The notes beneath the pieces were generated by a model. The model saw only the letters and a program-made list of their open reading frames with translations, made no database searches and was not told the DNA's origin. Both the position numbers and the translations under genes were made by a program. Source: a virus (taxonomy: Duplodnaviria; Heunggongvirae; Uroviricota; Caudoviricetes). From it: a stretch of DNA of 35,514 nucleotides. The stretch lies in the IMG/VR virus record IMGVR_UViG_2698536443_000010, positions 1 through 35,514 of that record; one strand, given 5' to 3'. How positions within the stretch are numbered: the first letter of the stretch is position 1; the number at the start of each line of letters is the position of its first letter. Positions 9,512-35,514 of this stretch are shown piece by piece.

Positions 9512-9514
9512 GTA

Positions 9515-16502: not shown

Positions 16503-16504
16503 CA

Positions 16505-17621: not shown

Positions 17622-17772
17622 CACTCCCACATGGGGAAATCTCGGTATATGGGGCGACCGCCTTCTGGATGCACTGGAAACCTGTAACGCGGATAAACGG
17701 GCCATTGAATTACTGGAACAGCGCAGACTGCAACGACTGAACAACGAGGACAACAACTATGCTGAAAACTGA
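17452..17772 (+). CDS. o-spanin (Rz1 / LysC-like lipoprotein), overlapping i-spanin in another frame
   Basis: Signal peptide with lipobox LLTGC, Pro-rich mature part (PVTPPPFPDTP); start within the i-spanin gene, extends past its stop. Confidence 0.55.
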   Translation: MNSYATILQKMNAPTLCLTLVLLTGCAGTQNAPRPAPSVRLIPQTLTIPVTPPPFPDTPTWGNLGIWGDRLLDALETCNADKRAIELLEQRRLQRLNNEDNNYAEN

Positions 17773-18226
17773 TTCCCTGCGTGAAGCCATGACCCGTTCA
17801 TGCCGATGGTGTCAGGCCAACCCGGAAAAATTCACCATTTTCGTGGAGAGCGGCAACATTGAAACGACAGGAGAAACCCCATCGTTTGTTTACCGCTATC
17901 AGATGGTGATGTTTGTCATGGATTACGCCGGGGAGCTGGACGACCTCACGCTGCCGCTGCTGGCGTGGTTATCCGAAAATCAGCCACAGTTGTTGCTCAA
18001 CCCTGAGCGTAATCAGGACATCAAATTTTCCGCCGTTATCAATGACGATGACAGCGCCGATCTCCTGTTTACGCTCCCCCTGCGGGAACGCGTTCGCATC
18101 ACGCGCAGCAGTCAGGGCACACCGCAGGCAGAACACCTGCCGGAGCCAAAACCCCGCCTGCCCTCTTCCGAAGGCGACTGGTCGCATGTATTCCAGGATG
18201 TGACGTGGGGTGAAAGCGATGGATAA
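17759..18226 (+). CDS. R: Tail completion protein, P2 gpR-like
   Basis: MLKTDSLREAMT...LLAWLSENQPQL resembles P2 R. Confidence 0.85.
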   Translation: MLKTDSLREAMTRSCRWCQANPEKFTIFVESGNIETTGETPSFVYRYQMVMFVMDYAGELDDLTLPLLAWLSENQPQLLLNPERNQDIKFSAVINDDDSADLLFTLPLRERVRITRSSQGTPQAEHLPEPKPRLPSSEGDWSHVFQDVTWGESDG

Positions 18227-18854
18227 GGCATTCACCCGCGTGGATGAAACCTTTGAGGCCATCCGCGACAGCCTGAATCAGCAGGCCATCAATAACATCG
18301 CCAGAAAGCTGGCACAGGATTTACGCCGCGCCCAGCAGGCGCGCATCCGGTCACAGAAAGCGCCAGACGGGACCGCATGGACACCACGCAGACGCCGCGT
18401 AACCCGGATACAGGAACGCATTCGCTTTATCTGGAATAACGAAGCACGCACGCTGAAAAACTGGCATCACGACACGGGGAAATACGGGCGAACCATTACC
18501 GGGTGGGATGAGGATAAAAACAATATCCGCATGTTTTACCGGGATGACATCGACCGTTTTCTGGAAATACGCACCCGGCGCATCAACCAGGACAGCACAA
18601 AGCGCGTCCCCATGTTCGTAAAACTGCGCACCGCCCGCTACCTGAAAGCCCGTGCAGATGCTTCCGGTGTGACGGTGGGTTACAGCGGCGTGGCCGCACG
18701 TATTGCACGCGTTCATCAGTTTGGTGAGCGCGATCAGGTTGCGCCGGGCATTTTCACCGATTACCCGGTACGTGAGCTGCTGGGTATCAGTCAGGCAGAT
18801 GAACGCCTGATTTATAACACGGTGCTGGGCCGGATTGCGGAGGCTGTACGGTGA
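18219..18854 (+). CDS. S: Tail completion / virion morphogenesis protein, P2 gpS-like
   Basis: Position between R and V; ATG 18219 chosen (in-frame GTG at 18210). Confidence 0.75.
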   Translation: MDKAFTRVDETFEAIRDSLNQQAINNIARKLAQDLRRAQQARIRSQKAPDGTAWTPRRRRVTRIQERIRFIWNNEARTLKNWHHDTGKYGRTITGWDEDKNNIRMFYRDDIDRFLEIRTRRINQDSTKRVPMFVKLRTARYLKARADASGVTVGYSGVAARIARVHQFGERDQVAPGIFTDYPVRELLGISQADERLIYNTVLGRIAEAVR

Positions 18855-19432
18855 GCGCAGAACTCATGCGACTGCTGAGCAATATCATCCGCACCGGGAT
18901 CATCTCTGAAGTTGACGAGAAGTCCTGGCGCGTGCGCGTTCGCAGCGGCGAACTGGAAACAGGCTGGCTGCGCTGGAACACCACGCGCGCGGGAGCCTTC
19001 AATGTGTGGCTGCCGCCATCACCTGGCGAACAGGTGGTAATTGCCTGCATTGGCGGCAACCCGGAAACCGCCATGATAATTGGCAGCCTGTGGAGTGATG
19101 CCAATCCGGCCCCCGGCAAAAGCCTGAAAGAAATCGTGATCAGCGCGCCGGACGGCGCGGTGTTCCGCTACGACGCGGACGCAGGCGCACTGAGCGCCAG
19201 CGGCATGAAAACGGCCACTTTACAGGCATCCGTCAGCGTGAAACTGGACACGCCCGTCGTGGAATGCACAAACCTTCTGAGAACGGCGACGCTTGACGTC
19301 ACAAAAGGGGGAAAGATGAGCGGCAATATCACGCACAGCGGCGGCGATTTCACCTCAAACGGCATCACAGTGCATACGCATAAGCACGGTGGCGTTAAAG
19401 GTGGCAGCGATTCGACAGGAGGCCCGCAGTGA
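18851..19432 (+). CDS. V: Baseplate spike protein, P2 gpV-like
   Basis: IRTGII...VVECTNLL...TKGGKMSGNITHSGGDFTSNGITVHTHKHGG resemble P2 V; GTG start overlapping S stop. Confidence 0.9.
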   Translation: MSAELMRLLSNIIRTGIISEVDEKSWRVRVRSGELETGWLRWNTTRAGAFNVWLPPSPGEQVVIACIGGNPETAMIIGSLWSDANPAPGKSLKEIVISAPDGAVFRYDADAGALSASGMKTATLQASVSVKLDTPVVECTNLLRTATLDVTKGGKMSGNITHSGGDFTSNGITVHTHKHGGVKGGSDSTGGPQ

Positions 19433-19779
19433 CAACCCGCTACACAGGAATGAATCCGGACGGGACGGGAAACCTGAACGATATGGAGCACCTGAAACAG
19501 TCAGTCAGGGACATCCTGATCACCCCGCTGGCAAGCCGGGTTATGCGACGGGAATATGGCAGCCTTGTGCCTGATTTGATTGACGAACCCATGAATAACA
19601 CAACTCGTCTGCAATGCATGAGTGCTGCCGTGATTGCGCTGACACGATGGGAACCCCGCATTGCCCTGGACGCCATCGACGTTGTCTGGAAGGCAGGAGG
19701 CCGCGCCGGGGTGACGCTGTCGGGCACTGTCATGCAGACCATGCAGAATGTTGAATTAACCATCACGCTGAGAGAGTAA
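19429..19779 (+). CDS. W: Baseplate wedge protein, P2 gpW-like (gp25 family)
   Basis: TTRYTGMNPDG...ILITPLASRVMRREYGSL...WEPR resemble P2 W; GTG start with GGAGG RBS. Confidence 0.9.
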   Translation: MTTRYTGMNPDGTGNLNDMEHLKQSVRDILITPLASRVMRREYGSLVPDLIDEPMNNTTRLQCMSAAVIALTRWEPRIALDAIDVVWKAGGRAGVTLSGTVMQTMQNVELTITLRE

Positions 19780-19782
19780 ATC

Positions 19783-20679
19783 ATGCCTGCTGTTGACCTT
19801 TCCCAGTTACCGGAACCCGCCATCATCGCGGAGCCTGATTTTGAGGCAATTCTGGCTGACACAAAGGCCATGATGATTGCGTCCTATCCTGCCGAACAGC
19901 GTGAAGCCGTCTCCGCCGCGCTGGAGCTGGAATCGGAACCCCTGAACGTTATCGCTCAAACCATGTCTTTTCGTGAAATGCTGTTACGCCAGCGGGTTAA
20001 CGAGGGCGCACGCGCCTGCATGTTAAGCCACGGTTCAGGGACAAACCTGGACAACCTCGCGGGCAATATGAACACAAAGCGCCTGGTTATCACTCCGGCA
20101 ACGGATACCACCGACGCGGTGATGGAGAGCGACACCTCGCTGAGATTGCGGGCGCAACGGGCGTATGACGGCCTGAGTGTTGCTGGCCCGTCAGGTGCAT
20201 ACGAGTATTTTGCACGCAGCGCCAGCGGTCTGGTGCGTGATGCGCGGGCCATCAGCCCGTCTCCGGCCTGTGTGACGGTTTCCATCCTGTCCACTGAGGG
20301 CGACGGCACAGCAACGGAGGCGTTGCTTAATACCGTTCGCGCCGTTCTGAATGCAGAGGATACCCGCCCGGTGGCCGACCGCCTGACCGTACAGAGTGCC
20401 AGAATCGTGACATGGCGGCTGAATGCAAAACTGTACTTTTACCCCGGCCCGGAATCCGAACCTATTCTGGCCGCGGCGGAATCGTCGTTCAGGAAGTGGC
20501 TGTCTGAGCAGGGGCTTATCGGTCAGGACGTGGCGTTGTCAGCCATTGCTGCCGCACTGCATGTGCACGGTGTGCAACGCGTGGAGATAATCGAACCCAC
20601 ACAAAATATGGCCATCAGCGACATACAGGCGGCGCGCTGTGAGTCATTCACCATCAGCGAAGGTGGGCGTAATGAGTAA
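19783..20679 (+). CDS. J: Baseplate assembly protein, P2 gpJ-like
   Basis: 298-aa ORF between W and I; size and position match P2 J. Confidence 0.85.
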   Translation: MPAVDLSQLPEPAIIAEPDFEAILADTKAMMIASYPAEQREAVSAALELESEPLNVIAQTMSFREMLLRQRVNEGARACMLSHGSGTNLDNLAGNMNTKRLVITPATDTTDAVMESDTSLRLRAQRAYDGLSVAGPSGAYEYFARSASGLVRDARAISPSPACVTVSILSTEGDGTATEALLNTVRAVLNAEDTRPVADRLTVQSARIVTWRLNAKLYFYPGPESEPILAAAESSFRKWLSEQGLIGQDVALSAIAAALHVHGVQRVEIIEPTQNMAISDIQAARCESFTISEGGRNE

Positions 20680-21202
20680 TTCACTGTTACCGCCATCAGC
20701 CAGCAATTTCATGCGTTGTGCCGAAGCTGTCGGAACGCGCATTACAGACACTCCGGTAGACCTCAACACGCTGTGGTCGCCGGACACCTGCCCGGTGCAT
20801 CTGCTGCCTTATCTCGCCTGGGCATTTTCCGTTGACCGCTGGGATCGCAACTGGCCGGAAGAGACAAAGCGACAAGTGATTCGTGATGCATGGCTGATAC
20901 ACCGACACAAAGGGACCATCAGCGCACTGCGCCGGGCCATTGAGCCGCTGGGATACCTCATTCGTGTGTCTGAGTGGTGGGAGTTCGGCGGAGAACCGGG
21001 AACATTTACCGTTGAAGTCGGCACGCTGGACAGTGGCGTGACGGAGGAAATGTATCTGGAAATGGAGCGGTTGATTGCTGATGCCCGCCCGGTCAGCCGC
21101 CACATGACAGGGCTGAATATCATTCAGGAGATCCCGGGGGATATTTTCGCGGCGGCAGCAACTTACGACGGTGAAGTCATTACCATTTATCCGGACGATT
21201 AA
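20672..21202 (+). CDS. I: Baseplate / tail-fibre attachment protein, P2 gpI-like
   Basis: [24 protein letters not shown]...VIRDAW...HKGTI...LGYLI...EWWE...PGTF...MERLIADA resemble P2 I; start at ATG 20672. Confidence 0.9.
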
Positions 21203-21204
21203 GC

Positions 21205-23337
21205 ATGAGTACCACAACACGAAAATTTAAAACCATTATCACTGATACTGGTGCCAAAAAATTAGCTCAGGCAGCCGCGCCAGATGGTAATCCTGTCCGC
21301 CTGACTCACATGGCCGTGGGCGACGGTGGCGGCACGTTGCCCACACCAGACAGTAAGCAGACCCGTCTGGTGCATGAGGTGTGGCGACATACTGTTAATC
21401 GCGTCATCCTGGACGCAACACATCAGAACCGCATTATTGCGGAGCTGGTTATTCCTCCTGAAACGGGAGGATTCTGGATCCGGGAAATTGGTGTGTTTGA
21501 TGAGCACGGCGATTTAATCGCGGTGGGCAATACTGCCGAAAGTTACAAGCCAGCCGTTGCCGAAGGGTCCGGACGTGCACAAACATTTCGCACCATTCTG
21601 ACAGTATCCAGCACTGCCACCGTGGCGCTTACCGTGGATAACACCATGGTTATGGCCACAGTGGATTACGTGGATAACAAACTGAAAGAGCATGAACAGT
21701 CACGACGTCACCCGGATGCCTCGCTGACCGCAAAAGGCTTTGTTCAACTCAGTAGCGCCACTAACAGCGATTCTGAAACGCTGGCTGCAACGCCGAAAGC
21801 GGTTAAGGTCGCGTATGATCTTGCTAACGGAAAATATACAGCGCAGGATGCCACAACAGCGCGAAAAGGCCTTGTCCAGCTTAGTAGTGCAACCAACAGT
21901 ACATCTGAAACGCTGGCGGCAACATCAAATGCAGTAAAAGCTGCCTATGACAATGCTGAAAAACGTCTGCAGAAAGCTAAGAATGGTGAGGATATCTCTG
22001 ACAAAGACACCTTTACGAAAAATATCGGTGCCTGCCGTGCATATAGTGCAGAGCTGAATATTGGTGGAGATAGTGAAGCATGGACAACTGCGCAGTTGAT
22101 TTTTTGGCTAGAGAGTCAGGGGGCATTTAACCATCCTTACTGGATGTGCAAAGGCTCATGGGCTTATGCAAGTAATAAGGTCATTACAGATACAGGTTGC
22201 GGAAATATTTGTCTTGCAGGTGCTGTTGTGGAAGTTATTGGCACCCGCGGCGCAATGACCATACGCATTACCACACCGAGTACATCCAGCGGTGAAGGCA
22301 TCCCTAATGCTCAATTTACTTATATTAATCATGGTGATGCTTATGCTCCTGGCTGGCGAAGGGACTATAACTCCAGGAATAAGCCAACAGCATCAGAGAT
22401 CGGGGCGTTACCGTCAGATGGGACAGCAGTATCGTCAGTTAATCTGGCTTCAAAAGGTCGGCTGACCGCCCTGACAGATAATATGCAGGGGGCCACAGGT
22501 CTGGAGTTATACGAGGCGTATAACAACGGATATCCAACAACGTATGGAAATATCATTCACCTGAAAGGGATGACAGCCGTTGGCGAAGGTGAGTTACTCA
22601 TCGGCTGGAGTGGTACAAGCGGTGCTCATGCTCCGGCATTTATTCGTTCACGACGGGATACGATCGACGCAAACTGGTCGCCGTGGGCGCAGCTTTACAC
22701 CTCGGCTCATCCTCCTGCAGAGTTTTATCCAGTCGGTGCACCAATCCCGTGGCCATCAGATACCGTTCCGTCTGGTTATGCCCTGATGCAGGGGCAGACT
22801 TTTGACAAATCTGCATACCCGAAACTTGCAGCCGCTTATCCGTCAGGCGTGATCCCTGATATGCGTGGCTGGACGATTAAGGGCAAACCTGCCAGTGGTC
22901 GGGCCGTATTGTCTCAGGAACAGGACGGCATAAAATCGCACACCCACAGCGCCAGCGCATCCAGTACGGATTTGGGGACGAAAACCACATCGTCGTTTGA
23001 TTACGGTACTAAAACGACCAGTTCATTTGATTACGGCACAAAAACCACAAATAGCGCAGGAGCTCATTCACACAATATACCTGTTGGTCACACTGGCGCG
23101 GGGAATGGTGTATCAGCCGGTTATAACGCTGCGTTAGGTACTGGTACCACGTCGAGCGCAGGAGAGCATGCTCACAATGTATATATCGGTGCCCATAACC
23201 ACACTATCGGCATTGGTGCTCATGCCCATTCTGTCATTATTGGTCCCCACGGACACACCATCACCGTTAATGCTACGGGGAACGCAGAAAACACCGTAAA
23301 AAACATCGCATTTAACTATATTGTGAGGCTTGCATAA
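21205..23337 (+). CDS. H: Tail fibre protein, P2 gpH-like N-terminus with divergent His-rich C-terminal domain
   Basis: N-terminal ~250 aa resemble P2 H ([23 protein letters not shown], duplicated [15 protein letters not shown] motif); C-terminus has [10 protein letters not shown] tandem repeats and HxH-rich repeats. Confidence 0.9.
22974..23055. repeat. About 2.5 copies of a 30-bp tandem repeat inside H (encodes [10 protein letters not shown])
   Basis: Direct reading of DNA and translation. Confidence 0.7.
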
Positions 23338-23915
23338 TGACATTCAGAATGAGTGAACAATCACGGACCATAAAAATTTATAATCTACTGACCGGAACCA
23401 ATGAGTTTATTGGTGAAGGTGATGCATACATTCCACCTCATACAGGTCTGCCTGCAAACAGTACCGATATTGCCCCGCCAGATATTCCGGCTGGCTTCGT
23501 GGCCGTTTTCAACAGTGATGAGGCATCGTGGCATCTCGTTGAAGACCATCGGGGTAAAACGGTTTATGACGTGGCATCAGGGGACGCGTTATTTATTTCT
23601 GAACTCGGTCCGTTACCGGAAAATGTTACCTGGTTGTCGCCGTATGGAGAGTATCAGAAGTGGAACGGCACATCCTGGGTGAAAGATGCAGAAGCAGACA
23701 AACTATTTCGGATAAGGGAGGCGGAAGAAACAAAAAACAGCCTGATGCAGGTAGCCAGTGAGCATATTGCGCCACTTCAGGATGCCGTAGATTTGGATAT
23801 TGCGACGGAGGAAGAGGCATCGTTACTGGCTGCATGGAAGACATATCGGGTATTGTTGAATCGTGTTGATACAACAGTAGCAGCGGATGTTGAGTGGCCA
23901 GTCGCCCCACAATAA
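23337..23915 (+). CDS. G: Tail fibre assembly protein, P2 gpG-like (divergent N-terminus)
   Basis: C-terminal [12 protein letters not shown]...EWPVAPQ resembles the P2 G C-terminus; TAATG overlap with H. Confidence 0.75.
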
Positions 23916-23923
23916 AAAGAAAA

Positions 23924-23949
23924 AGCCATCGACAGAAATATCGATGGCT
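23924..23949. terminator. Bidirectional terminator between convergent G and acetyltransferase gene
   Basis: Stem agccatcga / tcgatggct with 8-nt loop; T-run on the minus-strand side. Confidence 0.6.
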
Positions 23950-23958
23950 TTATGTACT

Positions 23959-24531
23959 CTATTTATACAATACAGCACCGCTCTTTTTAGTTATATATGT
24001 GCAGTTCGATGGTATATCTTTATTTATAAAAGACATTGCACCTATTTTTACATTATCCCCAATTTTACGGGATAATCCAATGATGCAACAATTAGCTCCG
24101 ATATCAACGTTGCTACCAATTTTTACTCTTGAACCAGGTATGTCACCATCTATCTGTCCAATGGTCGTATTCTGTCGTAACACCAGATTTTCACCAGCAT
24201 CAACAGCAAAATGAACAACAATTCCAGCATGATGGGGAATTGTTAACCCTTTTCCAATATTTGCGCCCAATCCAATTTCACAACCAAATTTGTTAATTAT
24301 TTTACTGTTTAACTTTTTGGCTGCTTTCTTATGTAATTTATTACCATTAATATACATTTCGTTAGCCAACCGCCACCAGAAAAGGAAATTCCGGTTACGC
24401 TGTTTTTTCTCTCTTAAAAGCCTCCAGATATCCATACGTTTCCGCCGAATTACTTCATATTTCCAGAAGTTTTTTAAATTAGTAGAGTTCCCAAATAAAA
24501 CAAAGTGAATTGCCATTAAGTAAGACAGCAC
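23959..24531 (-). CDS. Hexapeptide-repeat (left-handed beta-helix) acetyltransferase, CysE/O-acetyltransferase-like; AT-rich moron
   Basis: Isoleucine-patch repeats IGANIGKGLTIP...VKIGSNVDIGANCCIIG...KIGDNVKIGAMSFI; GTG start at 24531 after AAGGAG RBS (ORF extends to 24564; alternative ATG 24516). Confidence 0.7.
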   Translation of the reverse strand: MLSYLMAIHFVLFGNSTNLKNFWKYEVIRRKRMDIWRLLREKKQRNRNFLFWWRLANEMYINGNKLHKKAAKKLNSKIINKFGCEIGLGANIGKGLTIPHHAGIVVHFAVDAGENLVLRQNTTIGQIDGDIPGSRVKIGSNVDIGANCCIIGLSRKIGDNVKIGAMSFINKDIPSNCTYITKKSGAVLYK

Positions 24532-24687
24532 GATAATCTCCTTAATTATTATTTCAGACGACACATATTATAAGGTTAAGAGATTATAAAATCCTGTTGT
24601 TTGTTATTCAAAAACAATTTTCTGAGAAGGACATACAACAGCAAGTCGCCAGTCACCTTCATCAGGAAATTGGCGACATACGTTAAA

Positions 24688-25182
24688 TCAGAGCAGCCCC
24701 TTAACTGAGCTGGTCGCGCTATTAAGGGATGATGTCACCTTATCTTTGAAGCCGGACAACATATCGCTGAACGATGAGGATTGCAGGCGCTCCCGCAAAT
24801 CCTCATCACAGCGTTCAAGAGTCAGTGAAAATTCTATCTTTTTCGCCTTACCGTAGCGATCAAACTCGGAACGGGTCGTATTCGTTCCGGTCAGGACATA
24901 CATGCCGTAAATCTGCCCGACGCCATCAATCAAAGGCCAGGGTCGTCCTGTATACGCCTGCGTGGTCAGCAGCGACAGCGACACTTCGCCACCTGTAATT
25001 TCAGGATAAAGCACACCAGAAAGAACGATGCGATCATCACCTGCACCGATATACTGCCAGCTTGCTGAACGGTTAACGCGTTCATTTTTCACATGCCGCC
25101 AGCTTTTGTTTTGCTGTAACTGCTGATGCGGCAGCGTGCGCAGCTCAAAAACAAACATGCCGTAGATCATCATCATGGCCAT
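24688..25182 (-). CDS. U: Tail protein, P2 gpU-like
   Basis: SWRH...VNRS...GAGDD...LSG...ITGGEVSLSLLTTQAYTGRPWPLIDG...IYGMYV...LRERLQSSS...SGFKDKVT resemble P2 U. Confidence 0.9.
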   Translation of the reverse strand: MAMMMIYGMFVFELRTLPHQQLQQNKSWRHVKNERVNRSASWQYIGAGDDRIVLSGVLYPEITGGEVSLSLLTTQAYTGRPWPLIDGVGQIYGMYVLTGTNTTRSEFDRYGKAKKIEFSLTLERCDEDLRERLQSSSFSDMLSGFKDKVTSSLNSATSSVKGLL

Positions 25183-25188
25183 GACTCC

Positions 25189-28005
25189 TCAATCTTTATC
25201 GTAAAAACTGCCACGCCCGGCACGGGCGCGCCGTTCCATTTCTGCCCTGACCATTTCACCGACCAGTTTCGCCAGTTCGCGGGGATTCTGCGTAACAACG
25301 TTATGCAGATGAACATGAATTTCACCACCAAATTCGGAGGCAACAGGCTCCCGGTTACGGGAAGTTACAGGAACTGATGCCACTGGAGATCGTATAGCCT
25401 CCGCCACCGGGCGGGAGCTGGCCGCAACAACAGTGACCAGCGCCGGAGGCAGCGGAGCCGGGACCACGGGTGTGATATTAATTGCGGGGGCAGGCTTACT
25501 GACCTGCGCAATCTTCCGCTCCTGCCACTCCCCACGAACAGCAAGTGCCCGGGGCAGGTTTTTAAAGACAATATCGCCGGGGCCAATGCGTTTTTTCGTC
25601 TCCTCAACCAGCTTACCTGTGTTATCAGCAATTTTGCTGAGTCTGCGCAGCGTACCGGTATTGCTGTCTGTGAGCGGTTTATTGTCTTTGGGGTTATCAC
25701 CTCCGGTGCCATTGCCATTTTCCACAGGCTTCGGCGGATTGATTTTCGCCAGGTCCCCCTGAAGCAAGGCAACCTTGTCCTGAAGAATGGCCGCACGCTG
25801 TGCGTCTTCGATTTTCTTGCGCGCCCTTTCCGCTTCATCCGGAAGCACACCAAGCTTTTCAAGTATCCACGCCAGCGTATCCAGCAACATTTTTGCAGGT
25901 GTCAGAACAAGTTGTAACGCACCGCCAAGAACGTTACCGAATATCTCGCCAGCACTGGTACATTTATCCAGAGTTTCCTTGCTGGACTCCATCGGTGACA
26001 GCAGCGATTTAAACCAGTTAAACACCTGGCTGATCCCACTCCCGATTGCGTCAAAAACAGGACTAAACCGTTCAAAGGTTTCGCGCAACGGGGTCAGCCT
26101 TTCCATAATCCCGCTGAACACCCCGGCAAAAAATGCCCTGATGGGATCCCAGTATTTCCAGATAAGAACGGCAGCTCCGGCAAGCGCAGCCACGATAAGA
26201 CCAACCGGACTGAACAACGCCCCGATAGCGCCTCCCAGCAAAGAAACGGAACCCGTCACCATTCCCCATAGTGCTGGCAGAACCCTGACAGCATTCATTG
26301 ATCCGGTCAGGAGGGAAAAACCAAGACGCAGTTTTGCCAGCGGGCCAGCAAGCACACCAATAGCCAGCGACAACGAGCCAACCGTTGCAGTCATTGCCAG
26401 CAGTGCACCGCCTGCAATCAGTAGCTGGCGCGTCAGTGCGGGATGGGCCTGCGCCAGCGCCGTCACCTTTGATACCACACGCGTGAGCCACTGCGTGACA
26501 GAACGCAGCGGACCGTCAATCAGATCTGCAATGCGGATGCGCAACCCTTCCCATGCACTGCTGAGTGATTTCAGATCGCCGTCAAGGTTGTTGGCCATAA
26601 CCTTTGCCGTGCGTTCAGCCTCACCGCGCGCACCTTCAAGTTCTTTTCTCAGTTTGGGTAAGGAGCCGTCACCTGCCGCATCAACGAGGGCCATAAATGA
26701 TGTGAAAGCCTCTTCTCCGGCAATGTCCTTAAAGAACGATACCCGGTCAACTTCCCCGTATTTGCGGGTAGCTTTATAAAGGTCAGCCAGCACATCCTCC
26801 ATCGGACGCATTTTGCCCCCGGCATCCGAGACAGACACGCCAAGCTCTTTCAGCGCCTCTGCTGCCGCCTTTGGCGGTGATGCCAGACGAGCCAGGCTGG
26901 CACGCATTGCCGTCCCGGCATCACTCCCTCTGATACCCATATTCGCCAGCACGCCCGCCATCGCTGCGGCCTGCTCCAGCGATATTCCCAGCTTGCCCGC
27001 CACCGGACCTGCATATTTCATGGTTTCGCCCAGTGCGCGAAGGTCAGTGTTGGTACGGGTAAATGCTGCGGTGAGCGTGTCGCCAACCCGGTCCATCTGG
27101 TCAGCAGAAAGGCCGAACTGCGTCAGGATATTTGAGCCAATATCCGCCGTCTCGCCGAGATCCATGCCGCCAGCCGTTGCCATGCTCAGCACGCCCGGAA
27201 GCGCAGCCTGAATGGCCTGCGGAGTGAAGCCAGCCATTGCAAGAAATGCCTGCCCACTGGCGGCATCGCCTGCGGTGAACTGCGTTTCAGAGCCAAGTTT
27301 TAACGCCTGCTCACGCAGAGCCTTAAACTGCGGGCTGTTTTTGTCGATTCGCGTCAGTGCCTGAACGCGGGACATCTCTTTGCCGAACCCGATCGCAGGC
27401 TGTAAAAAACGCCCGGCAGCATAGCCGCCAGCCGCTGCCGCACCAATTGCCAGCGCACCACCTGTTTTCAGTTTTCCCGCGGTTTCCTGCACGCGCGAAT
27501 ACCGCTCACGCGCCCGCGTTACACGCGCAAGCGCCTGCCGTTCGCGTTCAAGCTGGTTGTTGTACTGTTCGGTGCGTCTGATGGCCTGCTGGATGGTGTT
27601 ATCGCTGCCTGTCAGGGAAATGCCGTGGCGTTTCAGCTCTCCGCCAAGCTCCCGCATTTTCTGAATTTCCCGTGTGCGCGATTCATTCAGGCGTTCAAGC
27701 CGGGTGCTTAACTGCTGCATCAGCTTTTGTTGTTTTTCGCTGAGCACTGTACCCGTGCGTTGTAACTGATTAAGGGCGTTAAGCTGGCGTCGTGCTTTCA
27801 CGATACCCGCATCCGCTTTACTGACAGCGTCGCGGGCGCGCTCAAATGAACGCGCCTGACGCTCGAGATTTTTGATCGCCCCCTGCGTTCGCTGGATGGA
27901 GTCACCAAACTGCCCCATCAGGCGGCGGGCGTTTTCGGCAGGCCGGGTCAGCCTGTCAACGGCGCTGAAAGCGACCCGGATATCAAGAGTCTTCATTGTC
28001 TGCAT
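25189..28005 (-). CDS. T: Tail tape measure protein, P2 gpT-like
   Basis: ~940-aa ORF with coiled-coil N-terminus and Gly/Ala-rich hydrophobic core, downstream of E/E'; start at ATG 28005 (alternatives ATG 27996, GTG 28050). Confidence 0.85.
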   Translation of the reverse strand: MQTMKTLDIRVAFSAVDRLTRPAENARRLMGQFGDSIQRTQGAIKNLERQARSFERARDAVSKADAGIVKARRQLNALNQLQRTGTVLSEKQQKLMQQLSTRLERLNESRTREIQKMRELGGELKRHGISLTGSDNTIQQAIRRTEQYNNQLERERQALARVTRARERYSRVQETAGKLKTGGALAIGAAAAGGYAAGRFLQPAIGFGKEMSRVQALTRIDKNSPQFKALREQALKLGSETQFTAGDAASGQAFLAMAGFTPQAIQAALPGVLSMATAGGMDLGETADIGSNILTQFGLSADQMDRVGDTLTAAFTRTNTDLRALGETMKYAGPVAGKLGISLEQAAAMAGVLANMGIRGSDAGTAMRASLARLASPPKAAAEALKELGVSVSDAGGKMRPMEDVLADLYKATRKYGEVDRVSFFKDIAGEEAFTSFMALVDAAGDGSLPKLRKELEGARGEAERTAKVMANNLDGDLKSLSSAWEGLRIRIADLIDGPLRSVTQWLTRVVSKVTALAQAHPALTRQLLIAGGALLAMTATVGSLSLAIGVLAGPLAKLRLGFSLLTGSMNAVRVLPALWGMVTGSVSLLGGAIGALFSPVGLIVAALAGAAVLIWKYWDPIRAFFAGVFSGIMERLTPLRETFERFSPVFDAIGSGISQVFNWFKSLLSPMESSKETLDKCTSAGEIFGNVLGGALQLVLTPAKMLLDTLAWILEKLGVLPDEAERARKKIEDAQRAAILQDKVALLQGDLAKINPPKPVENGNGTGGDNPKDNKPLTDSNTGTLRRLSKIADNTGKLVEETKKRIGPGDIVFKNLPRALAVRGEWQERKIAQVSKPAPAINITPVVPAPLPPALVTVVAASSRPVAEAIRSPVASVPVTSRNREPVASEFGGEIHVHLHNVVTQNPRELAKLVGEMVRAEMERRARAGRGSFYDKD

Positions 28006-28512
28006 TCCCGCTGCGAAGTGCCGCCCGCTCACGCCAGCTAACCACTTCACCGGGCGTCATCATGAAGATTTCGGCGGGCGACCAGTTAAAAATAACGGCA
28101 ATATCTGCCACAAAGTCTTCTATGTGCTCAAAGCACACAACCGTGATCAGGCTTCCGTCGCCTGTTCGTTCTTCCCGCCAGAGTCCGCACCGCTCAAAAA
28201 ATTTACGGCAACCACACATAACTGAATAAAGTCACGGGATGCCATTTTTTTGATCGTCACTTCATCCAGTCGCGGTGATGTCACGCGTGACAGCAGCGTA
28301 AACATGGCTTCCGCTTTCAGATTCAGCACATCAGACAGCGACAAATCTCGCAGAGATCCAGCCTGCTTAATAGCCCCGGAGATCTCCACATACGTGATTT
28401 TTTCGCCGCCTCGCTCAATTGGTTGGGTAAGTTTTACGCCACACTCACTGGTTTCTTTCACAGTGTCAGCAACTACCGTGTTTTCGGTATCGATGTTTTT
28501 CGTCTCTTTCAT
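27983..28512 (-). CDS. E+E' fusion produced by programmed -1 frameshift
   Basis: Heptamer T TTT TTG in the E zero frame (minus strand, 28201..28195); the -1 frame stays open to 27983, overlapping the T start. Confidence 0.65.
28147..28512 (-). CDS. E: Tail assembly chaperone, P2 gpE-like (zero-frame product)
   Basis: Position between FII and T; contains the TTTTTTG slip site near its 3' end. Confidence 0.8.
   Translation of the reverse strand: MKETKNIDTENTVVADTVKETSECGVKLTQPIERGGEKITYVEISGAIKQAGSLRDLSLSDVLNLKAEAMFTLLSRVTSPRLDEVTIKKMASRDFIQLCVVAVNFLSGADSGGKNEQATEA
28195..28201 (-). other. Slippery heptamer TTTTTTG (-1 programmed ribosomal frameshift site)
   Basis: Zero-frame codons AAT TTT TTG; -1 frame reads AAA TTT TTT GAG. 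Confidence 0.7.
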
Positions 28513-28566
28513 CAGGAAACTCCTTTCAGTCAGAGGCGACGCACTGCGCCGCCTGCATATTACTTA

Positions 28567-29079
28567 TCAGCCAAGCCCGAGCGCGGAACGGATGCGATCG
28601 GGCACAATGTCCTTGCCGTCCTTCCGGTAAATGAAGTTCAGCAGGTCAATCTCCCACAACGGGCGATCGTTAACACTCAGCTTGTAGTAGGTGTTTTTAA
28701 TGGCGTAAGTGTGTGATGTGGCTTCGCCCTGTTTGGCTTCCCCCATATCAATTTCCGTCACACGTCCGCGCATTTCGACTTCATACAGGTCGCTTTCTGC
28801 ATCGGTGTAATATTCACCCGCAAAACGCAGCAGCGTGCCGTCAATCGTGCCGCCATACTTAAGGAACAGCTCACGAACTGCGCCCCCCATGACAAAGCTC
28901 GCATCAAGCGCGGAGTCGTCCAGACCGAGATCAATACTTACCGCACCCATCATGCCACCACCCCGGTAGCTGTCGGTTTTGCGCGTCAGCTTAGGCAGAG
29001 TGACGGACGTCACCTTACCCACTTCGTTTTCACCATCCACAAACAGCGTAAAAAAGCGAAGATGTTTTGACACAGCCAT
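28567..29079 (-). CDS. FII: Tail tube protein, P2 gpFII-like
   Basis: 170-aa ORF directly downstream of FI; size and position match P2 FII. Confidence 0.85.
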   Translation of the reverse strand: MAVSKHLRFFTLFVDGENEVGKVTSVTLPKLTRKTDSYRGGGMMGAVSIDLGLDDSALDASFVMGGAVRELFLKYGGTIDGTLLRFAGEYYTDAESDLYEVEMRGRVTEIDMGEAKQGEATSHTYAIKNTYYKLSVNDRPLWEIDLLNFIYRKDGKDIVPDRIRSALGLG

Positions 29080-30263
29080 CAGGCACCTCCCAGCACCGCA
29101 AATGCGGGACCAAAGAATTCATCAGTAAACGTCTGGTAAAGCTCCATGTCTTCCAGTGGCGGAACGGGCGTATATTTGTAGCGAATACGCACACGCCCCT
29201 GACGTAAATCCGTGGTGCCGTTATCCACCACGTCATACCAGCACGACGCCCCAATCAGTTTCCCGGCAGTAACCAGTGAATCCAGTTTTGCCCTGATGGC
29301 ACTGATAACATCTTTCACGTTCGCAGGCGTCAGTGGACTGTCGATGGTTTCAAACTGCGCTTCCGCAATTGAATCAGCCAGCACCTGTGCGGTTCGGGTA
29401 TACACCTCAAAGATGTAGGCGTTCGTTTCCGGTGTGCGGTTGCCCCAGAAGCGGAACCCGTTGCGACGAATAATGGTCGTGATTTCTTTGTTGTTGAGGC
29501 TGTTGGCATCACTGTCTTCGGCCTGCAACGACCAGAACACATGCCTCGACATCCCCAGCACATTCTTAACCGGAACGTTGGAGAGTGATTTGTGCCATCC
29601 CTGCTCATGGTCAATGTACGCACGAAGGCCGCACGCATAGGCAGGCGCGGGGAACGTTTCGTTTTTGCCACTTTTCGGGTTGTAGGCGATGAAGTCCGGC
29701 CATAAGAGCATCACCTCACGTTCGTTGAATTTCTGGCGGTAGGTAATCGCATCAGCCATCGTGTCACAGCCATGACATGAGGCATACACAAACGCGCGCA
29801 GTTTACCCGCAATCACGCACAGGGATTTTGTCACCGCCTCCGTATCCAGCTCCGGCGCGGCCAGAATACGCGGACGGTATCCGATGCTTTCATCCTGCTC
29901 TGCAACAAGCAGCGCATACATCCCCGTATAGCTGCCGTCAGATTCAGAACCACCGATAACCAGTTGATCCTGCGTCTTTCCGTCTTCTTCTTTGTGTTCA
30001 GCCACGCGAACGACGATCACCTTTGTGCTCACCTGGTCTGCAATGGCCTTAAGCGCACGATAAAGCGTCCCCGTTGTCCCGCATTTTCCCAGCACGTCAT
30101 TGACGCGGGTCAGCAGTGTGGGCTTGTTCAGCGGGAACAGCTCCGCGTCCGCATCATCCGCCGTTGCCACGATACCGATAACACTGGAATCAACATCATT
30201 AATCGCTGTTACCAGGTCGGTACTTTCCGTAACACGGGCACCATGAAAACGAGTTTCACTCAT
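29079..30263 (-). CDS. FI: Tail sheath protein, P2 gpFI-like
   Basis: 394-aa ORF at the head of the FI-FII-E-T-U block; size and position match P2 FI. Confidence 0.85.
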   Translation of the reverse strand: MSETRFHGARVTESTDLVTAINDVDSSVIGIVATADDADAELFPLNKPTLLTRVNDVLGKCGTTGTLYRALKAIADQVSTKVIVVRVAEHKEEDGKTQDQLVIGGSESDGSYTGMYALLVAEQDESIGYRPRILAAPELDTEAVTKSLCVIAGKLRAFVYASCHGCDTMADAITYRQKFNEREVMLLWPDFIAYNPKSGKNETFPAPAYACGLRAYIDHEQGWHKSLSNVPVKNVLGMSRHVFWSLQAEDSDANSLNNKEITTIIRRNGFRFWGNRTPETNAYIFEVYTRTAQVLADSIAEAQFETIDSPLTPANVKDVISAIRAKLDSLVTAGKLIGASCWYDVVDNGTTDLRQGRVRIRYKYTPVPPLEDMELYQTFTDEFFGPAFAVLGGA

Positions 30264-30420
30264 AGCTTCAGCCCCTTGTATCCGTTAAATGATTCGGCAA
30301 CAATCATCACCCACCACGCGCGTAATCTCACTCCTGCGCCGTTCTCCCGCCACGGCGACAACAAAAAGCAGTAACCCCCTCCGCACGCACATGCGACCAT
30401 GCCGCACAGGGAGGGAACAG
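30264..30420. promoter_or_regulatory. Divergent intergenic region between FI (minus) and D (plus); presumed promoters
   Basis: 157 bp between divergent starts; no TGT-N12-ACA element found by eye. Confidence 0.35.
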
Positions 30421-31524
30421 ATGACCGACACCACCATGCAATTGCTCAGTCAGGGCACAGACCCCGTGAAAATGCCGGATTTTGATATTCTCGCGGAGGG
30501 TAAAACGCTGTCAGGCGTGGCAGAGCGCCTGATGAGCCTGTCACTGACCGACAACCGGGGATTTGAAGCGGACCAGCTCACCATCACGCTGGATGATGCG
30601 GATGGTCAGTTGCAGCTACCGCCACGGGGCGCGCGCCTGACGGTTCTCATTGGCTGGAAAGGAGAACCGCTGACAGAAAAAGGCACTTACATTGTTGATG
30701 AAATCGCTCACGAAGGACCGCCGGACAGGCTGACTGTTTCAGCCAGAAGCGCAGATTTTCGGGATGAATTTAACGTTAAACGTGAGGTGTCCTGGCATGA
30801 TGTGACCGTTGAGCGTGTGGTATCCGCCATCGCTCATCGGTATGGTCTGAAACCGCAAATCAGCGAAATGCTGATGGATATCGAAATCGACCACGCCGAC
30901 CAGACCGAAGAAAGCGACATGTCCTTCCTTACGCGCATGGCGGAAATGCTGGGCGCAATCACCACAGTAAAAAGCGGCAATCTGTTATTCATCATGCCAG
31001 GTGGTGGCGTGAACGCACAGGGCCAGCCGTTGCCCTCGTTCGCCATTACACGCAGCAGCGGCGATCGCCATCAGTTCCGTATTGCTGACCGCGAGGCGTA
31101 TACGGGGGTACGCGCCTACTGGCTTGATCTTAATTACGGGAAAAAGAAAAAAGTCAGCGTGAAACGCCGTAAACCGCCAAAACCCAAAAAGGAGAAAAGC
31201 AGCAGCCGTGAAGGTGATTATATGGAAGGCGCGGAAGGCAATGTGTTTGTGTTACGCAAGACTTATCAGAACGAGCAGGCAGCAAGACGCGCAGCGGCGG
31301 CAAAGTGGCAGCAGCTACAACGCGGAGCCGCAGCGTTCTCCATCACACTGGCACGTGGACGCGCAGAACTCTACCCCGAAATGCATGGCACGGTAACAGG
31401 CTTTAAAAGCGAGATTGATAATCAGGACTGGATTATTGCGAAAGCCGAGCACACCATTGATAACAGCGGCTTTACCACGCAGCTTGAGCTTGAGGCAAAA
31501 ATCCCGGAATGGATAGCAGAATGA
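30421..31524 (+). CDS. D: Late control / tail protein, P2 gpD-like
   Basis: LSLTDNRGFEADQL...RSADFR...SWHD...FLTRLAE...ITRSSGDRH...YTGV...REGDYM...NVF...KWQQLQRG...FTTQLELE resemble P2 D; GGGAGGG RBS before ATG 30421. Confidence 0.9.
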   Translation: MTDTTMQLLSQGTDPVKMPDFDILAEGKTLSGVAERLMSLSLTDNRGFEADQLTITLDDADGQLQLPPRGARLTVLIGWKGEPLTEKGTYIVDEIAHEGPPDRLTVSARSADFRDEFNVKREVSWHDVTVERVVSAIAHRYGLKPQISEMLMDIEIDHADQTEESDMSFLTRMAEMLGAITTVKSGNLLFIMPGGGVNAQGQPLPSFAITRSSGDRHQFRIADREAYTGVRAYWLDLNYGKKKKVSVKRRKPPKPKKEKSSSREGDYMEGAEGNVFVLRKTYQNEQAARRAAAAKWQQLQRGAAAFSITLARGRAELYPEMHGTVTGFKSEIDNQDWIIAKAEHTIDNSGFTTQLELEAKIPEWIAE

Positions 31525-31688
31525 GACTCTTAAATGTATTAGTCCAGACACGTACTAGCGGGCTAAACGGCACAGTCTTATCTGACCATCTGCCCCTAAC
31601 ACAGAGCAGACGGTCCTTGATCTTACCCACTAATAATGGACGCGCGACTAATATAATTTATTGCTTTTTATTTATACCTCACTGAGAT

Positions 31689-32324
31689 TTAGCGAGCTAA
31701 TATATTCAAAGAATTTAACAATTGAGTGTCGAGTGTTTCAGTTGCAGGAATCGGTAATCCATTCGCAATGCGGTAATTTTTCACAGACAGCCTTGTGGAT
31801 GGCCCCATTATGCCGTCAATATTTCCGTTATAAAATCCCCTGTCCAGCAATGCGAACTGAACTCGCATAATCAATCGCTTACGTTTCTCTGCATCAGAAG
31901 CAAGCCCATTACTCGTACGGTTAACCTCTGAAGTTCCAACAGAACTCGTGTTAGTGGTTCTATTATTATCGTTAGAACGAAGTGCACGCACCGAGGAAGA
32001 GGACGATGAGGAACTTGCACCTGAACTTGAAGAACCAGATGAACGTGGTGAGCTGTATGTTTTTGGATAATAGGGGGTACTTCCACCATAGTATCCACCA
32101 CCTGATGAGGATCTATGAGAGCTATGGCTCCTATGAGAGCTATGGCTTCGATGCCCTGCGATATAAAATGGGACTTCCGTGTTAAGTGGAGCTATCACTA
32201 AATCATGCTCATTAAGAGTCATACCAGGTAAATCACTCGCTCCTGTAGATGAATCGCTTGCCCATACAGAATTGTTGAGAGCCAAAAATCCCGGAAGTAG
32301 AGCAGCAAAATTAAACTTTTTCAT
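31689..32324 (-). CDS. hxsA: His-Xaa-Ser repeat protein (HxsA-like): signal peptide, HRS/HSS repeat tract, Ser/Gly-rich linker, peptidoglycan-binding-like C-terminal domain
   Basis: MKKFNFAALLPGFLALNNSVWA signal peptide; HRSHSSHRSHSSHRS; C-terminal LIMRVQFALLDRGFYNGNIDGIMGPSTRLSVKNYRIANGLP; ATGA overlap with upstream radical-SAM gene. Confidence 0.7.
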   Translation of the reverse strand: MKKFNFAALLPGFLALNNSVWASDSSTGASDLPGMTLNEHDLVIAPLNTEVPFYIAGHRSHSSHRSHSSHRSSSGGGYYGGSTPYYPKTYSSPRSSGSSSSGASSSSSSSSVRALRSNDNNRTTNTSSVGTSEVNRTSNGLASDAEKRKRLIMRVQFALLDRGFYNGNIDGIMGPSTRLSVKNYRIANGLPIPATETLDTQLLNSLNILAR

Positions 32325-33433
32325 AAAATTGGTCTCGGTGATTGATGAAAACGGCCTTTTGAGGAACTGAAATAGCCAGCACAGGAAGGCTTCTGAGTAC
32401 ATTCATCACATTCTTTTGGATAGTAATTTTTCCAATCAGAGATCGACTGAACAGCAAGCTCCCTAGCCCTTTCAGGAAGATAACACAAAGGATAATTAAA
32501 AATTGTCAGAGGTATGCCTGACCTGTATGCAGCGTCTATGGCAGAGATTATTTTCTCACTATAACTACTGTGATCAATGAAGATGGTGGACCAGTTTTTT
32601 CGTGCCCAACCGATAGGCTCCAACCCCATAAGGGAAATCTGATTGATGTTGGAGAACACACGGCCAGCGAATTCTACAATATCATCCAATTCGGTATAGT
32701 TAGCCAGTGTAGGAATAACTCTAAGTTCGATATTAATCCCCAAGTTTCCTGCATTGATTAACCCTTTAACCGTTTCATTAAATGCGCCATCACTCCCTAC
32801 CAGATGATCATGCACAAGTGGTCTTGATGAGTAGAGCGGGATACCAAAGGTGATTTTGATCTTTTTGCTTCGCTTTGCCATTTCCTGTGTAAAGTTGATA
32901 TCAGCAAATTTGCGTCCGTTTGTTAAAACATGTAAAGCAGTATCTGGTGAATTCTCGATGATAAAATCAATGAAGTGAAGGAAGTCATCCCCATATAGCA
33001 AAGGTTCACCACCGCTGACCCCAACAACTCCGTTCAAGCCAAATGAAGCTATAGCAAGAGCTGATTGGGTAAGTAGCCAGTCATCATTTATTTTCTTTGG
33101 TGGCTGCGAACAAAACAGACACAAGTTATTGCAGCGTTCCGTAACTAAGACAGTATTATGATTGGCTTTGCGTGACAGAATAACGCGTATCATATTGCCA
33201 TTGTTGATTATCCCAATATCTCCATCTTCAATTGACTCAAATAATTCAGTGCTAATAACAGAGAAATCAAAGCATGGTGGAATGGCATCATTATTGCCTT
33301 CAGCAACTACTAGCAAATTGGGCAAAAAGAATAAAGGGTTCACTGGTTTTTGTTTGCATAACCGATAGAACCCCGTGGGCACGTTCTCTGTAGAAGCAAA
33401 ATGAAAGATATCGTTCCTGATAACCTCAGACAT
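32321..33433 (-). CDS. hxsB: Radical SAM enzyme with SPASM-like C-terminus (HxsB-like maturase; B/C assignment tentative)
   Basis: CNNLCLFC (CX3CX2C), GGEPLL motif, C-terminal Cys cluster CDECTQKPSCAGYF. Confidence 0.75.
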   Translation of the reverse strand: MSEVIRNDIFHFASTENVPTGFYRLCKQKPVNPLFFLPNLLVVAEGNNDAIPPCFDFSVISTELFESIEDGDIGIINNGNMIRVILSRKANHNTVLVTERCNNLCLFCSQPPKKINDDWLLTQSALAIASFGLNGVVGVSGGEPLLYGDDFLHFIDFIIENSPDTALHVLTNGRKFADINFTQEMAKRSKKIKITFGIPLYSSRPLVHDHLVGSDGAFNETVKGLINAGNLGINIELRVIPTLANYTELDDIVEFAGRVFSNINQISLMGLEPIGWARKNWSTIFIDHSSYSEKIISAIDAAYRSGIPLTIFNYPLCYLPERARELAVQSISDWKNYYPKECDECTQKPSCAGYFSSSKGRFHQSPRPIL

Positions 33434-34814
33434 ATGCCCATCCTTTTAGCATCTCAGCCTTCGAACCACCCTCTGAGATGCAGTTCATCAGATACCTGAA
33501 CATCCCCTTGTGATATTGACAAAACGTTGAACGACTCCTATCACCGACAGGCTCACCCTGTACACTTATGTTCTGGCATGGATCTGAACCACAAAATGGT
33601 TGATATGCACATGTATCACAACCTGGCAGAGCAAAATTGAACGATGAACTCAATACTGCGTTATAGTAAGGACTATCAGAAAATGATAGCGTCTTAACTT
33701 CACCCGCACTGAACTCCGTTTCAGGATTCACCTTCTGCAACATACGGCTCTCATCGCTACCATATACTCGACCGTCATAATTGAAAAGAATACTGTTAAG
33801 CACGACTCCACTTGGAGACTTTAAATCCGCATAACCACTAAAACCGGGATTGAAGATCCTTTTCAGATGAATGGAGGCCGAATGTTCCACAACCCTTATC
33901 CCTTCATTATTAATCTTAAGGATTTCATCTATCAACGAGGCATAGAAGCTGAAGTATTCGTCCATAGAAAAGGTGAAAGAAGCTTTTTGTGCAAACCCAT
34001 AGGGACTAACAGGTCGGATAAACATGTCCTTGAGACCAAGAGACAAGTGAGCCTGAACAATCGATTCAGGACGTTTGATAAGCTCTTTAGTAACTGTAGT
34101 AACCGTTGCAACGCGGCCAGCACCTAAAGAGTGTTTGATAGCCTCTACCCCTGACACTGTTCTACTGTACGCAAGCCCACGACCAAGAATTCGATTACTG
34201 TTGTGAACAACTTCCTCACCATCAAGCGACACAGAGAACGTTATGTTCCGGTCTCTCGACCATTCAATCATATCCTCATTCAAGACGGACAGACTTGATG
34301 CCACCACCATCTCAAAATTGGTTCTTCCCAGCGTTTCAGCACATTGATCATAGATGCTCTGAATTAAATCAAACCGCAAGAGAGGCTCCCCACCCTGTAT
34401 CTCTATTTTGTAAGGTGGCGTTGATAGTTTTTTAATAGCCGAAATAATATCGGGGATGAGCTCAGGATTTAGGTCGTAACCTGAGGCATTAACAGAAGCT
34501 CTACTAACCTGGCAATACTTGCATGTATGGTCACAACGTAATGTGGGTACAATCATGAAAATTGGCCTGACAGCCAGTTCATTCATCAATCGTTTTGCAA
34601 AAGCAGAACTTAAAGCATAGGGAGTTATAGCAGATGAGCTTTCACTGGTTATGAAAAGCTTACTTTCTAGCACGTTTGATTGCTCCGAACTAATTCGCTC
34701 ATCAGAAAGATCAATAAGGTCTTGCTCACCAATGAAATGATGAAAACCTGCAAGGTTGCTTATAAACACCTGTCCATTAGGCAATCTGTCAAAATTAAAT
34801 GGCATCAATTCCAT
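33426..34814 (-). CDS. hxsC: Radical SAM enzyme with SPASM-like C-terminus (HxsC-like maturase; B/C assignment tentative)
   Basis: CDHTCKYC (CX3CX2C), GGEPLL motif, C-terminal CDTCAYQPFCGSDPC. Confidence 0.75.
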   Translation of the reverse strand: MELMPFNFDRLPNGQVFISNLAGFHHFIGEQDLIDLSDERISSEQSNVLESKLFITSESSSAITPYALSSAFAKRLMNELAVRPIFMIVPTLRCDHTCKYCQVSRASVNASGYDLNPELIPDIISAIKKLSTPPYKIEIQGGEPLLRFDLIQSIYDQCAETLGRTNFEMVVASSLSVLNEDMIEWSRDRNITFSVSLDGEEVVHNSNRILGRGLAYSRTVSGVEAIKHSLGAGRVATVTTVTKELIKRPESIVQAHLSLGLKDMFIRPVSPYGFAQKASFTFSMDEYFSFYASLIDEILKINNEGIRVVEHSASIHLKRIFNPGFSGYADLKSPSGVVLNSILFNYDGRVYGSDESRMLQKVNPETEFSAGEVKTLSFSDSPYYNAVLSSSFNFALPGCDTCAYQPFCGSDPCQNISVQGEPVGDRSRSTFCQYHKGMFRYLMNCISEGGSKAEMLKGWAYV

Positions 34815-35128
34815 TATGAAAGCCTCTCATCAACACTGCGAAGCACTTTATGGACAATAGAGTCTCTCAACGCCCCTGTTTTATGCTGTAGCTTTTCTCG
34901 CAAAGAGTAATCATTAAGCAGCCTATCGAATTCATAAAGGAATTTGGGATTATCGTTTTCAAAAGAGATTATCCAGTGGGAAACGTCTTCATGGAGTTTC
35001 CATCGAGTAAGCGGAGTCATCCAATATAGACTATTGCGTATAACCCATTCAGAATATAGTTCTTTCTCAAACACTCTTTCGCTCATTGCAATTATCTTCC
35101 AATACAAATATTCATGATCAGCAACCAC
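34814..35128 (-). CDS. hxsD: HxsD-like small protein with LLNDYSLRE motif
   Basis: FDRLLNDYSLREKLQ matches the LLNDYxLRE signature; first gene of the operon; start uncertain (GTG 35128 or ATG 35086). Confidence 0.65.
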   Translation of the reverse strand: MVADHEYLYWKIIAMSERVFEKELYSEWVIRNSLYWMTPLTRWKLHEDVSHWIISFENDNPKFLYEFDRLLNDYSLREKLQHKTGALRDSIVHKVLRSVDERLS

Positions 35129-35162
35129 TTTAAAGCGGATTTTTCCTATGGCAACAATAATA

Positions 35163-35182
35163 TAACATATCCATAGATATGT
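35163..35182. repeat. Perfect 20-bp palindrome AACATATC-cata-GATATGTT in the hxsD / ogr divergent intergenic region
   Basis: Read directly; candidate operator. Confidence 0.6.
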
Positions 35183-35338
35183 TACAGATGCCTTGTTTCC
35201 CGTTGACTAATACATCACAACGTTAGTAATGGCTATCACAATTGTGAACTTCCACTTTTCACACAAGACAAGCTGTTAATTGGAATCTGTATCAGTACAA
35301 CTTAGAATAGAGGAAGCACCACAGTAAGGGAGGTCGCT

Positions 35339-35509
35339 ATGTTCCGTTGTCCACTTTGTGGCGCATCTGCCCGTATCCGCACTAGTCGTCCGGAAAATGA
35401 TTCAAACACTGTGCGGCAAAAGTGGATTTGCCCCTATATTTCCAGACATCTGTTATCACTTAACCCATTACAAGCCCGCTGCCGCAGATATTCCCGTGGC
35501 GAGCGATAA
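35339..35509 (+). CDS. ogr: Ogr/Delta-family late transcription activator, divergent or possibly frameshifted (56 aa)
   Basis: N-terminus MFRCPLCGASARIRTSR resembles P2 Ogr MFHCPLC..ARTSR; strong RBS AGGGAGG; C-terminal half lacks the expected second Cys pair. Confidence 0.55.
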   Translation: MFRCPLCGASARIRTSRPENDSNTVRQKWICPYISRHLLSLNPLQARCRRYSRGER

Positions 35510-35514
35510 CCCAG

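Follow-up and report, generated by a model that had tools for sequence, protein, structure and literature searches.

Phages P2 and 186 genetically require ogr and B, respectively, for their late (head, tail and lysis) promoters. Together with Delta of P4, the products of these genes belong to the Ogr/Delta family, whose members act on late promoters via the alpha subunit of RNA polymerase. The zinc finger of Ogr binds one zinc through four cysteines arranged as C-x2-C-x22-C-x4-C, and the late operons of P2 depend on this protein (PMC3931495). In phage P88 (NC_026014.1), an ogr/Delta gene encoding 86 amino acids lies at 34476..34736; the gene is intact but unannotated in the RefSeq record, which has an annotation gap at this place, between the tail protein D gene and a hok-like gene. 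A second known system that is relevant here is HXS, an anti-phage system published in 2026 that blocks phage DNA entry; 77% of the hxs operons of E. coli are located outside predicted prophage regions (PMC13128918).

Here, we analyze a stretch of 35,514 nucleotides from a virus of the class Caudoviricetes (positions 1 to 35,514 of IMG/VR record IMGVR_UViG_2698536443_000010; hereafter, the window), with emphasis on a 56-amino-acid open reading frame (ORF) near its right end. A previous sequence-only reading of this DNA took the ORF for an ogr/Delta-type activator with a divergent or disrupted zinc-finger half, which could reflect either a frameshift (mutation or sequencing error) or genuine divergence. 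The disruption is real, but both proposed causes are wrong. The ORF is a chimera, and we consider it very probable that it resulted from transposition of the insertion sequence IS2 into the ogr gene of a P88-like prophage, an insertional knockout that is predicted to be a null allele. Disruptions by IS2 are already known as a kind of event, and so are the types of gene and of prophage concerned here.

Results

Prophage context of the window

By sequence comparison, the window is a P88-like prophage (Xuanwuvirus, Peduoviridae) of the P2 family: it shows approximately 97% identity to P88 and is collinear with it over the replication, head, lysis, baseplate and tail modules. The prophage at the btuC-ihfA locus of E. 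coli O26:H11 strain 11368 is 97.9% identical to the window over positions 5138..35423 and 100% identical over the last 724 bases of this range. The host would be an E. coli strain close to O26:H11, with the prophage residing between btuC and ihfA. Unlike the 11368 prophage and P88, the window copy has two insertion sequences, IS2 within ogr and IS629 within the DUF1640 gene close to attL; unlike P88, it also carries an hxsABCD cargo between gpD and ogr. The IS629 at the left end is a second insertion-sequence hit on the same prophage. The window appears to be a contig of a short-read draft assembly that is broken in multi-copy repeats at both ends (IS629 on the left and IS2 on the right). Because the contig appears to be broken 92 bases into IS2, the remaining parts of IS2 and ogr are missing from the window. 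The coordinates of all features are given in Table 1.

Another difference from P88 is found after the tail-fibre genes, where collinearity is lost in the region at approximately 21951..24682; at this place, P88 carries an invertase and alternative fibre genes. In the near-identical prophage of O26:H11 11368, the matching region contains a gene annotated as serine acetyltransferase. This region is probably a second cargo slot.

Table 1. Features of the window and of the sequences used for comparison
Feature	Position	Strand	Remarks
IS629 terminus	1..105		100% identity; cuts the 3' end of the DUF1640 gene just inside attL
DUF1640-gene ORF hit by IS629	66..575	-
GTTCT-N12-ACAACAAAA(A/G) sites, window	12856..12882; 30341..30367	+	Putative operators
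ORF in the non-collinear region	23959..24564	-
hxsA	31689..32402	-
hxsC	32321..33433	-
hxsB	33426..34814	-
hxsD	34814..35128	-
Sigma-70-like promoter candidate for ogr, TTGGAA-17-TAGAAT	35280..35308	+	Consensus scan, 9/12 matches
Shine-Dalgarno AAGGGAGG	35326..35333	+	5 nt before the ogr ATG; read from the sequence
Chimeric ORF, 56 aa	35339..35509	+	ATG start; 28 ogr codons, 28 IS2 read-through codons and TAA
ogr 5' remnant, codons 1-28 (MFRCPLCGASARIRTSRPENDSNTVRQK)	35339..35422	+	100% identity to the O26:H11 11368 gene
IS2, first 92 bases from the right end (IRR, TGGATTTGCCCC...)	35423..35514	-	Transposase on the - strand; cut by the window end
IS2 transposase (OrfB/InsD), last 26 codons and stop	35434..35514	-	From translation
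Complete IS2 of STEC384	3845..5175 of L003		Flanked by a 5-base duplication, TGAAC
GTTCT-N12-ACAACAAAA(A/G) sites, P88	14214..14240; 33253..33279 of L008		Putative operators

The ORF begins as an ogr/Delta gene

The 56-amino-acid ORF is present, as claimed, in the ORF list and in translation. It resembles the genes of the Ogr/Delta family (P2 Ogr, 186 B and P4 Delta) in its location 3' of gpD (30422..31524), close to the attachment site that bounds a P2-type prophage on the right, as well as in the N-terminal pattern MF.CP.C......RTSR of its product. In Chuche and P88, ogr is found directly after D, and in the sister prophages it is followed by hok and then by host ihfA; the order after the intact ogr of O26:H11 11368 is a hok/gef gene, host ihfA and pheT. 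In a DNA alignment, positions 35250..35422 of the window agree with the 11368 prophage at every base, and over 34700..35423 the identity is 100% both with this strain and with many other complete E. coli strains. The Shine-Dalgarno sequence is conserved in O26:H11 11368, STEC384 and Chuche. A sigma-70-like promoter for ogr is a weak candidate, found by pattern only; its TAGAAT hexamer lies within a stretch that is conserved with phages Chuche and P88.

In O26:H11 11368, the sequence continues as an intact gene of 261 bases annotated as 'ogr/Delta-like zinc finger family protein' (WP_001781539.1). The 86-amino-acid product reads MFRCPLCGASARIRTSRPENDSNTVRQK followed by YYQCNNLECGVCFSTLEAFHKF...PQN, and the window departs between these two parts; past position 35422, the intact ogr DNA runs on as TATTACCAATGTAAC... 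/ ...GCAAAAGTATTACC. The Ogr/Delta likeness previously noticed in residues 1-17 of the ORF thus extends further, with residues 1-28 identical to the intact protein, and a tblastn search of the window with the intact Ogr protein gave a match limited to residues 1-29. Unlike in the members of the family, codons 1-28 alone survive in the window, and neither a second ogr/delta gene nor the missing 3' part of ogr was found in the whole window, including by tblastn.

Alignment with P2 Ogr and 186 B identifies four conserved cysteines in the intact protein, C4, C7, C32 and C37, of which the last two correspond to C30 and C35 in P2 Ogr. The P88-type protein differs from P2 Ogr and 186 B in length (86 versus 72 amino acids) and in cysteine spacing (C-x2-C-x24-C-x4-C), and is approximately 34% identical to these proteins in the part that aligns with the window ORF. 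The product encoded in the window retains C4 and C7 only; the second cysteine pair and everything 3' of it are gone, and the four-cysteine zinc motif C-x2-C...C-x4-C is not formed. The intact protein scores 52.3 bits against the Pfam profile PF04606 (Ogr_Delta), matching profile positions 1-45 of 47, whereas the 56-amino-acid ORF scores 22 bits over residues 3-18 (profile positions 1-16 of 47). The gathering score of this profile is 26.3 bits; therefore, the intact allele passes and the window ORF falls below, as a truncated remnant of a family member.

Homology to ogr ends at the terminus of IS2

In the DNA alignment with intact alleles, there is no indel: identity holds through ...GCGGCAAAAG (35422), and then the window reads TGGATTTGCCCCTATATTTCC... 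When positions 35200..35514 were compared to phage genomes by sensitive blastn, the homology was split: the P88-like ogr genes of Chuche, PhiR44_2, P88, P884B11 and Shae_phiSM (annotated as 'transcriptional regulator') matched up to position 35423 and no further. The whole-window BLAST alignment with the O26:H11 11368 prophage also stops exactly at 35423. From this position on, the remaining 92 bases are 100% identical in blastn to the right terminal repeat of IS2 (U82084.1 'insertion sequence:IS2', Stx phages and others), with the right-end inverted repeat TGGATTTGCCCCTATATTTCCAGACATCTG..., and the OrfB/InsD transposase frame reads inward from this end. Over these 92 bases, the right inverted repeat and the 3' end of the transposase are 100% identical to those of IS2 (IS3 family, 1331 bp), an element known for gene disruptions in E. 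coli and Shigella. Unlike in a complete IS2, 92 of the 1331 bases lie in the window, and the left end and the 5-base duplication lie outside.

An important comparison is provided by STEC384, in which a complete IS2 of 1331 bases is inserted in the same ogr in the same orientation, 121 bases further downstream. The end of the transposase in the window has the same offset as the CDS annotated as 'IS3-like element IS2 family transposase' in STEC384, 11 bases inside the terminus. The window and STEC384 are common from exactly TGGATT onward, and their flanks differ immediately before this point. Because this independent, complete insertion shares exactly the same start, the terminus of IS2 is fixed at TGGATT.

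An assembly artefact, in which the contig end was mis-joined to an IS2 end while the real ogr is intact, would agree with the draft-contig style of a window that ends within repeats on both sides. It would also agree with the absence of the junction from every other genome searched: the exact ogr/IS2 junction was found neither in 5,426 complete E. coli genomes nor in a viral contig collection and a one-genome-per-species set. However, the breakpoint coincides with base 1 of the inverted repeat of IS2, whose position is defined independently by STEC384; a random mis-join would seldom be so exact. The position of the breakpoint exactly at the terminal base of IS2 is therefore a strong argument for real transposition. 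Moreover, IS2 is known to be inserted in the same gene in other genomes. Thus, we regard a mis-join as very unlikely, and transposition of IS2 into ogr as the appropriate explanation of the junction.

In STEC384/379 and in the P0001 fusion, IS2 entered this ogr independently and at other positions. These late insertions keep the four cysteines, and their product might still be active. Altogether, IS2 is found at three or more different sites in this ogr (the window, STEC384/379 and P0001).

The C-terminal half of the ORF is IS2 read-through

Translation from the ogr start would run for 28 codons into the right inverted repeat of IS2 and then stop, yielding a chimera of 56 amino acids. The tail (residues 29-56) consists of the 28 residues WICPYISRHLLSLNPLQARCRRYSRGER. 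A database search with the 56-amino-acid ORF returned 751 hits, and ten of these sequences were examined. Eight of the ten have unrelated N-terminal parts and end in ...WICPYISRHLLSLNPLQARCRRYSRGER, one has the tail with a single-residue variant, and one, P0001 (93 amino acids), is a further fusion of Ogr to IS2, with a third insertion site. The source names among the ten include outer membrane pore protein, melibiose carrier, toxin YeeV (CbtA toxin) and lysis protein S. The tail is the end of many functionally unrelated truncated proteins of E. coli and Shigella.

Since the tail is shared in this manner and is identical to IS2, the cysteine in WIC, the stop at 56 amino acids and the DIC-YH...YKP string in the +1 frame are all explained by IS2. 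The ORF has cysteines at positions 4, 7, 31 (WIC) and 48, and none shortly after 31, in agreement with the previous statement that the expected fourth cysteine is missing a few residues later. The proposed third-ligand cysteine does exist at residue 31, but its codon belongs to IS2 and its position is coincidental. Likewise, the +1 frame is indeed open to the window end, reading ...FPDICYHLTHYKPAAADIPVASDNP (frame 3 is closed), but as a clue to the lost zinc-finger half it is spurious, being IS2 sequence throughout.

These data bear directly on the proposal of a frameshifted ogr, i.e., an indel or a sequencing error near 35420..35470 with the true C-terminal half in the +1 frame. The open +1 frame, with its cysteine and YKP loosely recalling Ogr, gave this proposal some appeal, but the alignment to intact alleles proceeds without an indel until homology is lost totally from 35423, and the 92 bases after the junction are IS2. 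In a very permissive tblastn comparison of Ogr residues 29-86 to positions 35400..35514, chance matches of 2-4 residues alone were found in any frame. With no indel, with a tail that is 100% IS2 and with no likeness to the C-terminal part of Ogr in any frame of the 92 bases past 35422/35423, a frameshift is refuted, and its probability is practically nil.

We assign an equally negligible probability to a genuinely divergent, short Ogr-like activator of 56 amino acids with an unusual second zinc-binding half. The good Shine-Dalgarno sequence, the start codon and the cysteines at 4, 7, 31 and 48 would suit such a protein. Against it, residues 29-56 are encoded by the terminal repeat of IS2 and are common to unrelated truncated proteins, and the Pfam score is below the threshold, with a match to profile positions 1-16 only. 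In addition, an exact-sequence lookup shows no record of the 56-amino-acid protein in protein databases, and no homologs of the same 56-amino-acid architecture were found, the homologs being 86 amino acids long. This type of ogr is present in 1,200 of the 5,426 complete E. coli genomes, and a single match spans 80% or more of the ogr query in 1,196 of the 1,203 records matched. The ORF is accordingly best described as an ogr gene interrupted by IS2.

It should be noted that the ogr/IS2 junction creates a terminator-like hairpin at 35415..35432, in which GGCAAA...TTTGCC precedes a T-rich stretch. The insertion probably gave rise to this hairpin by chance.

Late promoters

The sequence-only reading had reported no TGT-N12-ACA site at the expected late-promoter positions, and a motif scan bears this out: the window contains three such sites, compared to 8.65 expected by chance, and none of the three is located in the P/O or FI/D intergenic regions, where late promoters are expected. 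The sites are likewise absent from the late promoters of P88, a free phage whose ogr is intact. Because P88 lacks the same sites, their absence is a lineage trait that is uninformative on the present allele; the P88-type late promoters differ in this respect from the targets of P2-type Ogr.

A different pattern, GTTCT-N12-ACAACAAAA(A/G), is present in both the window and P88, with a single site 5' of gpO and another 5' of gpD, at the places where TGT-N12-ACA would stand in P2. The site centres are approximately 79 and 68 bases upstream of the start codons of gpO (position taken from the P88 annotation) and gpD, respectively. The pattern was derived from its two sites in the window, with conservation in P88 as the sole independent support, and its sites may be regarded as putative operators of the P88-type activator. 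The divergent P/Q and sheath promoters showed no match to the pattern.

The hxs cargo

A complete hxsABCD (His-Xaa-Ser radical-SAM) operon is carried between the 3'-terminal codons of gpD and the ogr gene, in a cargo of 3.8 kb (31522..35295). P88 and Chuche have merely ~40 bases at this place, and the operon is clearly a prophage cargo. All four hxs proteins exceed their own NCBIfam cutoffs. PADLOC 2.0, the library of which is older than the HXS paper, gave weak viperin-like radical-SAM matches alone for these proteins. The cargo starts with TGATCTTACCCACTAATAATGGAC (31610..31640), just 3' of gpD, a sequence that we take to resemble the terminal repeat of the IS3 family. No inverted partner of this sequence was detected at the opposite end, and a search for inverted or direct repeats flanking the cargo gave nothing convincing.

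Discussion

We propose that IS2 inserted between positions 35422 and 35423, right after codon 28 of ogr. On the far side of the element, one would expect the left end of IS2 (...GGGGGCCAGTCTA, as in STEC384), a duplication of AAAAG and then TATTACCAATGTAACAACC (TATTACC...). This other junction, the expected duplication and the 3' part of ogr are all outside the window, and the full insertion is not directly visible.

A product without C32 and C37 would be unable to form the four-cysteine zinc site. From the loss of the second cysteine pair and of everything downstream, we infer that the allele is almost certainly null, with the activator function lost; the reasoning extends to the P88-type protein the need for a zinc finger that is known from P2 Ogr and 186 B. 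The prophage would then be defective in late gene expression and unable to complete a lytic cycle unless Ogr/Delta is supplied in trans, possibly by another P2-like phage or a P4-like satellite.

Alternatively, the truncated fusion could keep or gain activity, for example, by disturbing late transcription in P2-like phages that enter the cell. A small protein could well be produced, given the promoter-like site, the ribosome-binding site and the 28 intact codons, but it would contain half of the zinc site and a tail that is accidental IS2 read-through, common to many pseudogene products. The residue aligned with what we take to be the RNA-polymerase alpha contact position of P2 ogr52 (Tyr42) is also gone from the fusion, which counts against activity. 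Taken together, these features make an active fusion highly improbable, even less probable than an assembly artefact, and we retain the interpretation of a null allele.

The knockout by IS2 could also be more than mere decay if it was selected as 'locking-in', immobilizing a prophage that carries the HXS anti-phage cargo. In favour of this notion, independent genomes show IS2 at three or more different sites of this small gene, but we consider such selection unlikely. The notion of ogr as a hotspot of IS2 insertion was also rejected, given the number of E. coli records in which a single match covers most of the gene. Disruption of this ogr by insertion sequences is rare, and the presence of IS2 at three sites is unremarkable given the activity of IS2 in E. 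coli.

In annotation, the ORF should be labeled as an IS2-disrupted ogr pseudogene and not as a new activator, and the prophage scored as probably defective for late gene expression. More generally, seemingly divergent C-termini at contig ends often represent read-through into the ends of insertion sequences. The window adds one more case of prophage inactivation mediated by insertion sequences, in an IS-rich, STEC-type E. coli background.
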